A stretch of DNA of 64,000 bases, from positions 124,001 to 188,000 of the forward strand of contig CM039010.1 in the NCBI GenBank assembly GCA_017499595.2, in the 5' to 3' direction. Under the pieces are notes generated by a model. It ran no database searches and had not been told where the DNA came from. It saw nothing but the letters and a program-made list of their open reading frames with translations. Positions 38,657-51,580 of this stretch are shown here, in pieces. The translations under genes and the position numbers were made by a program. This DNA comes from Psilocybe cubensis (lineage: Eukaryota). Positions within the stretch are counted from its first letter, which is position 1; the number at the start of each line of letters is the position of its first letter.

Positions 38657-39145
38657 AGCAGGGCCAGTTGTTACACTGTGCTGAGCCGTACTGTACACGG
38701 GACATACACAGTGTGGAGTGTGTGAGGTTCAAGCGGATCCGCTGACCCGGTAAGTATTTTATCCATATGGGGTAATATACACAGTGTGTTGGGCACAGTG
38801 TTCCAGCGGGGTCACTGTCCAGCATACCAATCTGGCAGACATCTACTCAGCGGACACAGTCTTTCTACTCAACGGACACTGTGTTATTTGGCGTCGTCCC
38901 AAAATCACTTGGGCGAGGCGTGGTTGGCGAGCATTTGGCACCAATTGCCATTCCACCGTATCATGTATACACAGTGGATTTACTTTGGTCTGCATTGGTG
39001 GAACCTAGTCATTGTTGGTGTGTACATAAATACTGACTCTACTTAGAGAGTATTAATTATTTTTAAACTACGTGTTCTAAAGCTATTCATCAAGAGGCAT
39101 TACATCAAAAAAAGGAACAGGTATTTTAGGAAGTGTGATGCTGAT

Positions 39146-41231
39146 TTAGTGATAGTTATCTGGCCGAGATGGTTGTGGGGAGCGCTCAAGTCCGCTAAAG
39201 AGATTCGACAGTTCGTCAGCACTGCCATCGTATTTAGAAGAATGAGAGGAAGGTTCATAACTACATGGCGAGGGTGTTGATTCCCGGGGCGGTACTGCAA
39301 AATTAGCATACATGAATGCCAGATCGTCCTGTATTAACGCTCCCGGCGTATCTAATGGAGGGTGCATCCTTTCTTGAGCTGCTTCAACGTTAATATAGGA
39401 TGTTCGGGTTGTTGGCGAGGCATTTAATTCAGTTGATCCTACTGATACCGATTGAATTCGGCATCCTGAGGTATGACGAACATCGCAGTCGGAGATCTGT
39501 GAGTAAAGTGCCCCAAGCTTATCCTCACACGATAATAGACTGTTGGATGTCACTGGGCCTGAATCCGACATCGATTCATCATGATATGGCGAGGAGATTT
39601 TGGCAGAATATACTGATGGGTCATCACTATGATCAGGGTCATTGGGCAAATCAGGTGGAAGGTCGCAAAAAAGCGCGGCTAGCGTGTCTTCTTTCTGTGA
39701 TGCGATGCCGTTGACTGCACTGCGATCGGGGTTATTGGGAAAAGCAGGTGAAAGGTCGCAAAAAAGAGCGGCTAGCTTGTCTTCATTTTGTGATGCAATG
39801 TCGTTGGCTGATGGTGTGAGGTCGGAATACATCAAAGCAAGATTGTCCTCAAATGCCGGTCGATGTAGATGATTAGAAGCATAATGACTATTTTGTTGGC
39901 TCCCGGGATGTAATAAAGGGCCATCGTCATCAGAAGGAAACATGTCACCATCAGAATGTAATGCAGAATTTCCACCCGATTTCAGGCTATTGTATAGGGC
40001 GGCCAGATTGTCTCGGAATGGAAATGCTGTTGGTGCAGATTTGCCGATGTGGGTGCGTGTGGATGGCGAGGCGTTTGGTGTGGGATTGTTAAGGTGAGTG
40101 AGTGTAGATGGCGAGGCATATAGTGGATGGTCTTCTGAGTTCACGGGTGGCAATCAGAAACCAGTTACATAGAATGGGGCAGCGACATACCTTCAAATTG
40201 GGTGTGCAATAGAACATTTTTGTATTCTCGCCGTTTCTGTGAGGCATGTGACTGTTCTTCGCCCACCTGGTTGTCATTTGGCGAAATGTGATATTGAGCA
40301 TCTACTGGACTGGACGATGTGGGAAGCTCGGTTCTAGATACATTGAAGGTATTTGCTTTGTGAGGAGACGGCGATTCTTGGCTTGAAACACTCATATTAC
40401 TGTTTACGTCTGGCCACCAATCTTTTGCATGATACCGAGGTCTGCCCGTTACTTTTTGATTTGCGTTCGCGGCCGGGGAGCTTGAAAGCACTCGAGTAGG
40501 TGTTGCAGGTTGCTCTGTACGGTCCCCTCGGTGGCCAACCACCAGTAGGTTATCCTTTTCTGCGCATGCCACCACTGAGATCCATTCTGACACAACGGCT
40601 GGGTCACTACCAAATGACCAGTTTTGCATGCCATGATTGGGTTTGATTATGCTCGACATATCAGGTCCCACCAATATATGCAGCTGCTCACAATGATACC
40701 GAAGGCATTCCTCAACAGACCAATCACCAATAGCTTTCCCGGTTGCTTGTCCTCCAAGTACCTCTGAATCCTTCCACCATGCTTGTTTATAACTGTCCAC
40801 TGTTCTAGAAATGGCTTTGTTTGACAACCCGGAATACAATGATTGCATGAATTTAATATCGAAGGAAATAGGCAAATCACTCGGTGACACCCTTCCAAAC
40901 GGCGATTTTGCCAATGTACGCAGGAAACATGGCACATCAACAACATGACCAATAGTGGTGCTATATCCTACACAGGACATAAAATAATTCTAATTGGGAT
41001 TGAAAATTAGATTTAGAAACCTTGAAAAATCTGTATACGAACCAATTCTTTACGCAGCAAGAGCTGCAGCCCTTTTTGATGTTTCAGAGGTTTTGTATGA
41101 ATTTCGCAAAGGGCGTTTCTTAATCTTGATTCCCCATAGTCAATGATAGCTTGCAGGTATGAAAGGTACGATGAATCGGAAAGCGAACAAGATTCAGAGG
41201 AACTTGACATATTGATTGACTGACTAGACAT
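39146..41231 (-). CDS. KDZ element gene A: unknown ~650-aa protein with seven D-x-L-x-x-(L/M)-(Y/F) motifs
   Basis: ORFs 41013-41252, 40165-40980 and 39146-40153 join in frame through two short GT-AG introns (IFQ/GYSTT and QFE/EDHPL). Confidence 0.7.
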
Positions 41232-48107: not shown

Positions 48108-51020
48108 TTAGTATTCCACCATATCATCCTCGTCATCTTGCGGCCCCGGGTGCGTAAGTAAATTTCCATCGGGTCCTATCTTCAGGAGGGGAATAAGGGA
48201 TGGTGACAATGGGGGCGGTTTAGCTTGAGTAGTTAAGATTTTTACGGAGGGTACAGTGAAGACAGGATGGTAAGGAACAATCGCACCGCGACTTTTGTCA
48301 TCGTGGGAATTATGGGGCGTGGAGACATTGGGCGAGGATTGGTCACCTTGTTGAAGTTCAACTCCCTTGTCTTTACCTTTTGCATCGCTGTTGGAGACCA
48401 CATGTTTGGCTTTCTCAACATATTTGGTGTTGTCAGCCACTTCGGCATTCTCGATGCATTCGGTGTTCTCAACACGCTCGGCATTCTCAGCATGGTCCTC
48501 ATTGGCTGCAGCCTGCGGGTTGGCTTGCAAGAGAGGAGCCTCGGTGTGGCTGGTATCATTGGTGAGCACTTTTGCGGTGTCAGTGTTGGTACGATTTGGT
48601 GATTCCAAATGGGTATCCATAGATTCTACATCATTGGAGGGCGAGGCTTGAACTGGCAAGTAGACAGCGTCAACGCGAGTTGGCGAGGGTGCATGTTCGA
48701 CAACCTCGGCATGTTCAGTGGGCTTGACATGACTTGGCAAGTAGGCAGCATTAACGCGAGTTGGCGAGGATACGGGTTTGGCGAGCTTGGCTTCGGCGTT
48801 TATTTCGGCATGCTTGACATGGTTGCTGCTGGCCAAAGGTAGAGAATCATGCTCCTCTAGGTCAATTGGTCTGTCGGATGATCCCCCAGACCATACTTTG
48901 GCCAATGCAGCTAATTTGTTGTGAGAGTGCACAGGTACATATTTCTGGTCTATGCTTATAGGCGCTGGTGGCGATGCTTTTGCCAAATCTGCGGTATTGC
49001 TGTCCGCATTGTTTTCTGAGTGGTGTGTTTGGGAGGATTGGGTAGGAGGTGGCTCATGATGTGTATGATCCCCTGCCTCTGATGAACTGTGCTCATAGAT
49101 ATCATGTAGAACGGCATTGACTTCTCTTCTTATCACAGTCACTCGTTCAATGACTTCGCCATAAAAGTGGTTTAATACATCAAATTTGGAGTCCAGCAAC
49201 TCCAGCGATAAAATGAAGAAGGCCAGCTTTCCTGTGATATAGTCGAAGCCATGATCATAACTGGTGAGCTGGTCATCCATTTTCTTCATTTTTCGTATGA
49301 TCTTTGCACATTTCTTCTCCAGTTTTGTGAGACGATCTTCGGTGGATAAGGTGCAATTGGTAACATCGTCTTCCGGATCACTTTCTACGTCCCAATTGCG
49401 AATGTAGGAAGGGCGTGGAGGCAAGGGTGGTGGCGGGCGGGTAGAACTTGATTGGGAAACATCTTCATGGAACCACTCATTCCATGTTTTAACTTGGCGT
49501 TACCAAAGTATGTTAGCTTTTCTTTGTGTTGATATGGTGAATAGCTTACCATTACGCTCAGGTTGCTTTCCCATAGCCTTTTCAGACAGGATTGGCCTGT
49601 CCGGGGGCGGAGGTACATTTGGCCTCTCTGAGGTTTCTCGGGGTGTCTTCGCTTCATCTGAGACAGTAAGTCAGTTTTGCTTCATAGTATTATAATGAGC
49701 AGCTCACCATTTTTCTTAGGTTGCTTTTTCTTTACCGTGTCGGATGGGACTGATCTCGCTGGGGGTTGTGGGACATTCTCGGTAAGTCTCTCCAAGGTTT
49801 GTCGGTGTGTTTTTGCTTTGTCAGAGATAGTAAGGGAGGCTGACTCTTTTGTGTCTTGTGCAGCACGTTGGACCTTTGATTCTGCGATAGCCGGAGTGAC
49901 TGTGGCTTTAACGGCGTCCTGTCTTTCAGCAGATCGGTTACGACTGTTGACTAGGTTCGAAGACTGAACTTTGATTAGGGTCAAAGCACCACGGGGAGTA
50001 ATTTTCGGATTTCGGTCTTCTTCCAATTCACTCGTGATTGACTCATTTTCATCGACTTCAGAACACCGTTCAATTTCTTCTCCTTTGCCTCGACAACCTC
50101 GACGATGCTTGTTGCAGTAGAAACAAGTTGCAGTTTCGTACGTCAATCTACATTTCCGTTGATGTTCGGCACACATATGACATGGGCGTACATGGATCCA
50201 TTTTGTAGCCTTCACGGGCAGGCGCTCATCATGTCCAGGGCCAACTGACTTCTCCTTTGATTGCCTAGCTGATGTCTTGTTTCGGTTTGCTTTCTGGCGT
50301 ACTGCCTTGATTTTGATATTTTCTTCGGCGCTTTCAGGATCAGATGGATTCTGAGAAGGTATGAATGTGCCATTGTCATCTTCTGATGCCTCAAGCTCAG
50401 CAAAGGTCTTAGTAGCACTGGCACGAGTTGAGCTGACACAGCGTCTCTTGGGAGGTCAAGCAATAGTGGATGAATCAGAGTCATTCTCCAGGTCAGACTC
50501 TCGTTTGGCTGGAGGTGCCGAGGCTAAACCAACTTTTTCAGTACCTCGACGCTTTTTCGGCAATGGTTGGGCATCCTCTCGGCGAGTTGAATTCAGCATA
50601 CGGTTAGCTGATTTCCTCCCTTCACCGGGACGTCCTGAGGTACTGTCATCTTGATGCTCAGGTGCGTTACTGGCACCCTCCTTGTTCAAAAGATCACGCA
50701 TCTCTTTCAGAAACTCGGAGCTGTGATGTCGATTTTGGCGACGCGCTGTGCCATAGGCCAACAAAAATTGAAACAGAAATATGTTAGACTTTTTCTGTTT
50801 TTCTGCAACACATTCTTCCGCCGTGGATGTAGCTACAGCCAGCTTGGTCTGATATTAGTGGGTATTTTTATCAGATAAAATTTCAACGTACTACCAAGTC
50901 CCAATGTAGGTTCACAACCTCAGCCACATTGCCGTTCTCGAGCCCTCTCCGGACCTTTTTGTCAAGCGTCTCAACGGCATTTCTGAATTCTTTCAGGTCG
51001 GTAATGGTTTGCTTTGGCAT
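48108..51020 (-). pseudogene. KDZ element gene C: Zn2Cys6-cluster plus coiled-coil protein, apparently inactivated
   Basis: CX2CX6CX8CX2CX6C at 50093-50182, plus a coiled-coil-like segment (EDRLTKLEKKCAKIIRKMKKMDDQL). An in-frame TGA at 50456-50458 and an apparent frameshift near 50715. Confidence 0.7.
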
Positions 51021-51580
51021 TTCGTTGAGACGTGGAATTGAAGTGGTGGTGGCTTACAAGTAGGGTTGAGTGTCTTACAAAAATGTGGAGTTTGTTTAGT
51101 CGGCTGACACCGATAGACCCGATCACAAAATCTGCATGCTATTCTCTAAAACAAACCTGGGCGCGGGTGACCGACAATGTATGGATAGACCTCTGCATGG
51201 GTAACAGAATTTATACATTTCAAGTGTCTGTTACTGAGCAATGCTGTAATATTTAGTGCTACCTATTTGACCCGTATTCATGTTGGCAAAGACCAAGTGG
51301 CGAGAAATAATGGAAGTAATGGCGAGTGGGTTAATGGCGACTAGTCAAATGATTACACATTGATCCGGCCCACAGAGGAACCGTACAGTAGGTAAACGGA
51401 ATACACAGTGTGTCCCGCGAGCACGCTATGCATGGCTAATAATGGAAGTAAACCAGCCTACAGCGGAGCCGCTAATGAGTAGCAATTACACAGTGTGTGC
51501 CCTACCGTATATAGTAGTGTAGGTGGCCGGATGGGCGGACTCGGTGACTGGTATGGGACTGCACACTGTACACGTCCCTT

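Follow-up and report, generated by a model that had tools for sequence, protein, structure and literature searches.

A four-gene KDZ transposon copy in a TPR-CHAT gene of Psilocybe cubensis: termini, strain polymorphism and relatives

The locus

KDZ elements are abundant in mushroom genomes and, to our knowledge, few of them have been described end to end. The subject of this work is a transposon copy located in a window of 64,000 nt of Psilocybe cubensis (assembly GCA_017499595.2, contig CM039010.1, 124,001-188,000, forward strand; all positions given here are those of the window), which carries the gene of a KDZ transposase of the CxC2 type, named B, together with three further genes named A, C and D (Table 1). 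Pfam matches to TPR_10 and TPR_12 were found on both flanks of the insertion in one reading direction, and a CHAT domain is placed 3' of the downstream TPR part (53001-54080); the TPR repeats at both sides and the CHAT domain after them identify the interrupted host as a TPR-CHAT gene. A previous sequence-only reading of the window had described an insertion of about 12.9 kb that splits a TPR repeat and contains a KDZ transposase within a large, multi-gene basidiomycete element. These claims are borne out by the Pfam matches on the flanks and in the transposase (PF18758 and PF18803), by the annotated genes JR316_0012781-0012783 and by the uninterrupted gene of other strains.

The strain comparison covered positions 37400-52900 in three public contig sets and one raw-read set (X5, X8, X9 and X12, hereafter the runs). 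As relatives, 80 metagenome contigs encoding KDZ proteins, with a transposase identity of 34-63%, were collected (loci with handles in L); the alignment of the gene A domain is too variable for a metagenome scan, and that of the transposase was used as query. Together with the window, the 80 loci provided the 614.6 kb in which terminal motifs were searched.

Table 1. Features of the KDZ transposon copy and of the interrupted gene, in window positions
Feature	Position	Strand	Evidence or remarks
Upstream part of the split TPR-CHAT gene	37942..38658	+	TPR matches
Host heptamer GTATGAG, inferred target site and sole surviving copy of the 7-bp duplication	38652..38658		Host sequence in empty alleles; abuts the 5'-CA terminus
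KDZ (CxC2, Kyakuja-like) transposon copy, 12,936 bp	38659..51594	transposase -	Start of X9 contig; empty-allele joints 38659/38661 to 51595
Left terminal motif CAGGGCCAGTTGTTACACTGT (CA[GC][GA]-N9-[TC]ACA[CG]TGT)	38659..38679	+	Sole match in the window
Left subterminal ACA(C/G)TGT heptamers at +15, +50, +123, +137 and +218	38673..38882		Motif positions
Palindrome AGCGGATCCGCT (CGG-N2-CCG), candidate binding site	38732..38743		AGCGGNNCCGCT search
Gene A (JR316_0012781, 607 residues as annotated)	39146..41231	-	Conserved helical domain of about 110 residues at 40660-40989, then a non-conserved tail
Gene B, KDZ transposase with CxC2 (JR316_0012782)	41298..44971	-	Exons 44971-44708, 44652-42472, 42448-41645 and 41585-41298
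Gene C (JR316_0012783)	45156..48024	+	Conserved, mostly helical N-terminal region of about 380 residues; disordered tail; divergent from the transposase across 184 bp
Gene D	48108..50854	-	Zn2Cys6-like six-cysteine motif at 50093-50182, low-complexity sequence, helical C-terminal coiled-coil-like segment; convergent with C
Right subterminal ACA(C/G)TGT heptamers at -190, -105 and -32 from 51594	51405..51569		Motif positions
Palindrome AGCGGAGCCGCT (CGG-N2-CCG), candidate binding site	51462..51473		AGCGGNNCCGCT search
Surviving inner right inverted repeat, including (GTATG)2GTAT at 51581-51594	51532..51594		Contigs, comparison with L041
Downstream part of the TPR-CHAT gene (TPR repeats, then CHAT)	51595..54080	+	Pfam matches, empty alleles

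Empty alleles and distribution among strains

Empty alleles were seen in three of the four runs (X8, X9 and X12). A contig of 2,345 nt from X9 (depth 23.5) joins 38661 to 51595 with AATG between them, a form shared by five X12 reads, and an X8 contig and ten X12 reads join 38659 to 51595 with TGAATG between. The sequence of the empty allele is ...GGTATGAG-C(A/T)GAATG-CATCC..., the CAG form occurring in the X9 contig and X12 reads and the CTG form in the X8 contig and X12 reads. The codons of the uninterrupted gene (TGG CGG TAT GAG C(A/T)G AAT GCA TCC ATG GAT GAT) encode WRYE(Q/L)NASMDDL, which matches the neighbouring repeats. The sequence-only reading had expected the restored junction TGGCGGTATGGTATGGTATCA with the peptide WRYGMVSSMDDL, and had named an empty allele with a different junction as evidence against itself; the alleles found, GAG-C(A/T)G-AATG-CATCC, do differ from it. 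The number of letters that fit both sides at the joint is zero, and hence the TPR-CHAT site itself displays no duplication. GTATGAG is the heptamer that precedes the CA tip in the window, and in the empty alleles it is followed by C(A/T)GAATG-CATCC; the window allele therefore lacks the 7 host bases that come after the target heptamer. In all, 12,933 bases replace 4 in the window allele, a net gain of 12,929.

DDE transposons such as KDZ excise by cut-and-paste, and footprints are to be expected in principle. If the element were ancestral at the TPR-CHAT site, the alleles taken as empty would be excision products carrying such footprints. What the alleles contain makes this very improbable: they are in frame and match the repeat consensus RYE-x-x-G/A-S-x-D-DL; they occur on at least two haplotypes, with flanks about 7% divergent from the window and a one-base difference between them (CAG/CTG); and the doubled heptamer is not present, the sequence after GTATGAG being CAGAATG, alike at one of seven positions.

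The runs differ in their content of the element. The summed depth of X12 is at most 1.6 in 22 of the 23 bins over 38951-50841, between flanks of about 25-40, so the element is absent from this strain. X8 and X5 have both the window-type and the divergent flank haplotype, with the element at about half of the flank depth, and are therefore heterozygous at the TPR-CHAT site. X9 displays only the divergent, empty flank haplotype at all 40 listed variant sites, yet has the element at full depth. Its element contig differs from the window at 13 positions over 38659-43609 (99.7% identity) and is preceded, before 38659, by 30 unrelated letters ending in CCACGCC; neither of the two 30-letter flanks from X9 was found anywhere in the 64-kb window. 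Being empty at the TPR-CHAT site and having the element behind a foreign left flank, X9 carries the same four-gene unit at another site. The two independent left junctions diverge exactly at 38658/38659, and the second-site copy does not share the left end, 38657, proposed by the earlier reading. Taken together, the 99.7%-identical copy elsewhere in X9, the two heterozygous strains and the strain without the element show present or recent activity of the KDZ family in P. cubensis. The element varies between strains and inactivates a TPR-CHAT allele, and could therefore serve as a strain marker.

The host gene itself varies strongly: between the X9 allele and the window there are differences at 64 of about 990 positions (37671-38661) and at 78 of about 1,090 (51595-52684), about 7%, and two such TPR-CHAT haplotypes are carried by three of the four strains (X5, X8 and X12). 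Within the 64-kb window no part of the element is present a second time. Elsewhere, all four runs, X12 included, possess an extra diverged copy of approximately the last 700 bp of the element (about 50842-51594). Depth is doubled at 50842-51358, where X12 has reads; small indels at 51379/51382 and internal deletions in X5 accompany this copy, which resembles a solitary right-end relic at another place in the genome. A 601-nt contig of X8 and X9, with no counterpart in X5 and X12, represents a paralogue, diverged and with gaps, of the central part of gene D (49549-50211), and the depth is doubled there.

The ends of the element

The pattern CA[GC][GA]N9[TC]ACA[CG]TGT and its reverse complement gave 11 matches in the 614.6 kb, none of them within the gene module: each lies at the outer end of an inverted repeat or close to it, or else close to the end of a contig. 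The 64-kb window contains a single match, at 38659, and none at the right end. The true left end is therefore 38659 (5'-CAGG) instead of 38657, and the window is devoid of the right terminus. The subterminal heptamers follow the same arrangement: in L012, L035, L041 and L060 the left heptamers are located at +15 and +49/+50, and the positions +15, +50 and +123 of the window element recur in these four loci. At the right ends of relatives the heptamers are found at -21, -55/-56 and -129. Those of the window at -32 and -105 become -56 and -129, the mirror of +50 and +123, only when 24 nt are added.

The contigs of X9 and X5 match the window through 51594 and continue for 30 further letters; the initial 24 of these agree with the motif of the right terminus and have TG as their last two letters. 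The reverse complement of the letters beyond 51594 has TTGTTACACTGT in common with 38668-38679, and from TTGTTACACTGT to GGGAC there are 19 nt on both sides, in the same register (counted by us in the sequences as printed). Inspected by eye, L041 has a right end that aligns with this composite right end over about 55 nt. The mirror spacing of the heptamers, the continuation of the contigs and the termini of the relatives thus indicate a right end that lacks exactly 24 nt, and the full-length element would measure 12,960 bp.

These ends bear on the sequence-only reading, which had delimited a complete and possibly still mobilisable element at 38657-51580 with a 5-bp target duplication, GTATG. 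The pentamer is indeed present at 38652-38656 and twice at 51581-51590, and the removal of 12,929 bases preserves the frame and the repeat spacing. That number was right, and, as it is the true net gain, the frame appeared to be restored. As a duplication, GTATG fails: the left one is part of the host GTATGAG, and the right ones are element-internal (GTATG)n in the inverted repeat, the window copy reading ...GGTATGGTAT at 51594. They are element sequence in the contigs that continue into a further terminal stretch, and comparable sequence stands at the corresponding place in L041 and L044. Moreover, the empty alleles retain AGCAG (38657-38661) or AGC (38657-38659) as host sequence and have C(A/T)GAATG where GTATGGTAT was predicted, and the second-site copy of X9 begins at 38659. 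We give hardly any credence to a complete, still mobile element with these ends. A short repeat whose removal restores a frame is no proof of a target duplication.

Imperfect inverted repeats surround the gene module, 165 nt long in L012 and 320 nt in L022. In L041 the arms are 88 and 49 nt long, about 175 nt from the tip when the terminal extension is counted, and in the window element about 60 nt. The right tips of L012, L022 and L041 end in TG. The clade is thus characterized by 5'-CA...TG-3' termini, imperfect terminal inverted repeats of about 60-320 nt and heptamers about 15, 50 and 123 nt from each tip. The perfect case of target duplication is L022, with GATGCTA on both flanks, identical at seven of seven positions.

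Two occurrences of the palindrome AGCGGNNCCGCT, one towards each end of the element, were found in the window, against 0.05 expected by chance. CGG-N2-CCG is enriched at the ends in three of four complete elements, L041 being the one without enrichment, and is absent from all four one-ended loci; as a conserved binding site the palindromes are only a lead. Separately, CACAGTG is contained in four of the subterminal repeats (38705-38715, 38778-38788, 51402-51412 and 51487-51497); the same heptamer is the consensus in V(D)J recombination signals and at Transib ends.

History of the window copy

We propose the following history for the window allele. The element would have inserted canonically at the host heptamer GTATGAG in the TPR repeat, adding 12,960 + 7 bases. 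A single deletion of 38 bp would then have taken away the last 24 nt of the right end, the 7-nt right copy of the duplication and, beyond it, 7 bases of host sequence, C[A/T]GAATG. The outcome of this model, 12,960 + 7 - 38 = 12,929, equals the observed net gain. With regard to the mechanism, the DDE-type KDZ transposase with its CxC2 zinc module would recognise the phased heptamers, cut at the CA/TG tips and integrate with a 7-bp stagger. We consider it probable that the window copy is a cut-and-paste, TET-less, Kyakuja-like KDZ transposon of the CxC2 type that inserted canonically at GTATGAG and afterwards suffered the 38-bp deletion.

The same final structure (no duplication, the host C(A/T)GAATG gone and the terminus gone) could also have been produced at once, if aberrant or one-ended transposition, or capture during break repair, had inserted an element already 24 nt short while removing 7 host bases, without any later deletion. 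In accordance with this, no allele of intermediate form, in which the right end at the TPR-CHAT site is still intact, was seen in the four runs; in four runs only, such an allele is easily missed. On the other hand, GTATGAG directly abuts the exact CA terminus at the left, as in normal integration, and one simple deletion accounts for the three losses. We regard the one-step origin as unlikely.

Some observations weigh against canonical insertion followed by deletion. The window has no right copy of the duplication, so that the 7-bp duplication at the TPR-CHAT site is deduced, and the 38-bp deletion would have taken place without clear microhomology. Among the three complete relatives the flanks match in one; those of L012 and L041 do not, possibly owing to chimeric metagenome assembly of repeated elements. 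The contig that extends past 51594 may derive from the separate right-end relic present in all four runs and not from the element of X9, and the evidence for the second site of X9 covers its left flank, the right one not being seen. Finally, the 80 loci include many near-duplicates (e.g. L021/L022, L039/L060 and L032/L048), and independent families are fewer than the counts suggest.

Under either history, deletion or aberrant insertion, the loss of the right terminus and of the right duplication copy leaves the window copy without its right cleavage site. Therefore this copy keeps an open transposase frame, yet it probably cannot excise itself, contrary to the suggestion that it might still be mobilisable.

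Genes of the element and their order in relatives

In gene B, an open reading frame (ORF) of 728 residues (42475-44661, minus strand) is identical to JR316_0012782. The KDZ domain PF18758 is matched with E=1.5e-44 in the ORF and 3.9e-44 in JR316_0012782, and the CxC2 cysteine cluster PF18803 with E=1.2e-16 in the ORF; at E<=0.1 CxC2 and KDZ are the only Pfam families of the transposase. Its reading frame is open; ADGNFKADH, CDVTG and GEILE are motifs common to 11 aligned full-length relatives, this protein included. The annotated JR316_0012782 retains an in-frame 57-nt GT..AG intron (43300-43356, minus strand; VWSAQLGSILTMLTKENLQ) that the paralogues do not have. No large ORF matched a TET/JBP family in Pfam, in agreement with the earlier observation that no TET/JBP motif is visible.

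The conserved domain of gene A, about 110 residues, has 67 relatives at E<=0.001. They include JR316_0001589 and JR316_0006495, the latter adjoining the KDZ gene JR316_0006496. The predicted fold of the domain (mean predicted local distance difference test, pLDDT, 73) found no match in the PDB better than E=2.4, and the gene A tails gave no tblastn match in the 80 loci. A gene-A-like N-terminal domain also heads a multi-copy family of P. cubensis proteins of 797-807 residues (P0126, P0191 and P0192; JR316_0008473, 0012427, 0001554, 0012505 and more); this multi-copy A-like cluster (JR316_0008473 and others) could not be linked by locus tag to the multi-copy KDZ cluster (JR316_0002983, 0011295).

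Apart from itself, gene C retrieved a single homologue in the protein search, JR316_0001586 (44% identity), which adjoins the KDZ-like JR316_0001587; the A-like 0001589 stands two tags further. As a query on its own, gene C had no relatives among the metagenome contigs, and its N-terminus falls only among unnamed Basidiomycota clusters in the Atlas. Its predicted fold (mean pLDDT 54; the first 380 residues or so mostly with block means of 60-96, with dips), built on an alignment of exon fragments that is partly misaligned, found no match better than E=0.3.

Gene D contains the motif CHMCAEHQRKCRLTYETATCFYCNKHRRGC (50093-50182, minus strand), whose spacing CX2CX6CX8CX2CX6C fits CX2CX6CX5-12CX2CX6-8C. 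The six cysteines are invariant in 13 aligned D-like segments, 10 of which are matched by PF00172 (best E=1.6e-5). When a profile of the D segments was compared with the PDB, all 12 sequences at E<=10 were Zn2Cys6 proteins, with Lac9 as the best (E=0.0056). The motif has 17 occurrences in the 1.13 million six-frame residues of the 80 loci and the element region.

The arrangement of these genes recurs in the relatives. An A-like domain is placed directly downstream of the transposase, on its strand, in 29 of 37 testable loci, and a C-like domain divergently upstream of it in 39 of 46. For gene D, a tally compiled from the synteny and motif tables considered the 22 loci with at least 4.5 kb upstream of the transposase, and 14 of them have the Zn2Cys6-like motif past C and on the same strand as the transposase, which is also its place in the window; as exceptions, it is inverted in L010 and downstream in L044. 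The result is a fixed four-gene layout, D> <C B(KDZ)> A>. The earlier reading had attributed to the element an accessory gene set of its own and had asked whether the other genes accompany the KDZ clade in the same order; the gene set is borne out, its order and orientation being conserved across the clade and the unit being present, absent or elsewhere according to the strain. Its count of four intron-containing, closely packed genes stands as far as the KDZ gene and three more are concerned, with intergenic gaps of 184 bp (44972-45155) and 83 bp (48025-48107) from mapped exons and ORFs, whereas the gap of 66 bp between A and the transposase depends on the start assigned to gene A.

Since A-, C- and D-like genes are kept beside transposases of only 34-63% identity, A, C and D would be parts of the element's own machinery or regulation and not cargo. 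D may bind, speculatively, the element ends or the 184-bp bidirectional promoter. A further, doubtful step would be to regard the KDZ clade as a multi-component transposon, in which the DDE transposase needs the Zn2Cys6-type D together with A and C, co-evolved across the Agaricomycetes. If this were true, the clade would stand out among eukaryotic cut-and-paste elements by a transposition and regulation machine of four proteins, and it would be a natural source of domesticated Zn2Cys6 regulators.

Several results temper these proposals. The window's own D segment matches no Pfam family at E<=10. The D-like genes have no BLAST-level similarity to gene D of the window, whose ORFs gave no tblastn match in the 80 loci, and its 463-residue ORF had no match among annotated proteins of 254-811 residues. 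A and C have neither a Pfam family nor a structural match, and with whole ORFs as queries no Pfam family was matched by A, C, D or the D-like ORFs identified by position. The absence of a recognised transposition-related domain in A, C and D, and their long, fast-evolving and disordered tails, would also agree with passenger cargo of the Starship type, having host-directed functions outside the transposition system, a possibility that Huang et al. (2024, PMC11588098) raise in their discussion of the additional ORFs in the KDZ elements of Cryptococcus. Variable cargo would nevertheless look different from genes that keep position, strand and order with respect to the transposase in 29/37, 39/46 and 14/22 testable loci, and we hold cargo to be improbable.

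For the TET-less CxC2 clade, the exact termini, the phased heptamers, the 7-bp duplication as in L022 and the four-gene layout allow annotators to delimit such elements, and the heptamers, the CxC2 domain and the Zn2Cys6-like protein are concrete candidates for experiments.

Other features of the window

Two G+C-rich regions lie upstream of the TPR-CHAT gene. The first (15822-26911; 52-65% G+C, strong positive GC skew) has four long plus-strand ORFs of 740, 1285, 1045 and 686 residues, whose sampled translation consists mostly of RE/RD/RS/KE dipeptide runs and which match no Pfam family. In the second (31396-35040), an ORF of 1,214 residues is rich in S/T/P/A runs and is likewise without a Pfam match.

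Relation to known systems

The closest resemblance is to Kyakuja, for which 7-bp duplications and CA..TG termini have been reported (Kojima 2025, PMC12730594, main text). In common with those families, the window element has a KDZ transposase, belongs to Agaricomycotina and has 5'-CA..TG-3' termini (CA at the left in the window; TG at the right from the letters of X9 and X5 and from relatives). A 7-bp duplication is perfect in the relative L022, is not matched by the flanks of L012 and L041, and in the window would be represented by its left copy, GTATGAG. Kyakuja families were found via a TET/JBP gene according to the same text, whereas the window copy has none. Kyakuja-1_LB and Kyakuja-2_LB of Laccaria bicolor are described there as having no terminal inverted repeats, and this speaks against the likeness, as the window clade has inverted repeats of 60-320 nt with phased heptamers. 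Conserved genes corresponding to A, C and D are not described for Kyakuja in the passages considered of PMC12730594, whose supplements may hold extra ORFs.

For Cryptococcus, mobile, multi-ORF KDZ elements of 6.4-11 kb with inverted repeats and duplications were published in 2024-2026 (PMC11588098, PMC12810828, as far as their descriptions of the elements go). KDZ1, KDZ2 and KDZ3 (Dileera) resemble the window element in their size of 9-11 kb, in a KDZ + CxCn transposase accompanied by domain-less extra ORFs, in long inverted repeats (139-241 bp) and in polymorphism of presence/absence and position. They differ from it in having CxC1 in place of CxC2 and duplications of 8 bp (KDZ1) or 4-8 bp (KDZ2, KDZ3), and their mobility is experimental (same sources), while in P. 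cubensis it is deduced from strain comparison. The premise of novelty in the sequence-only reading is not sustained by these publications. CxC2-type KDZ genes have been noted in Pleurotus as well (PMC7641404).

Zisupton (fish, fungi; KDZx1 of C. deneoformans) shares with the window element a KDZ-type transposase and cut-and-paste transposition. Its duplications are of 8 bp, in contrast to the 7 bp of the window clade in L022, so that the duplication length does differ from that of Zisupton, as had been claimed; KDZx1 is described with CxC4 and SWIM domains (PMC11588098, domain description), the window transposase having CxC2 and KDZ only. As regards gene D, it and its positional counterparts have the six-cysteine spacing of the fungal Zn2Cys6 proteins (Gal4, Lac9, AlcR, Leu3, Put3, Ppr1 and Hap1); unlike in these, the gene D motif is not N-terminal, the gene is inside a transposon and the window segment is below every Pfam threshold.

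In a single literature search, none of the 15 papers listed dealt with Kyakuja together with Zn2Cys6 or accessory genes. Within that scope we found no description of long, heptamer-bearing inverted repeats joined to CA..TG tips and a 7-bp duplication of the Kyakuja kind, nor of a conserved four-gene KDZ layout with a Zn2Cys6-like protein; supplements of the KDZ papers may describe extra ORFs. Large multi-gene KDZ elements are already published, and the window clade is a variation on this known theme. On the best explanation, the element is a member of a TET-less clade of the CxC2 type, with ends that agree with those of Kyakuja apart from the long inverted repeats.

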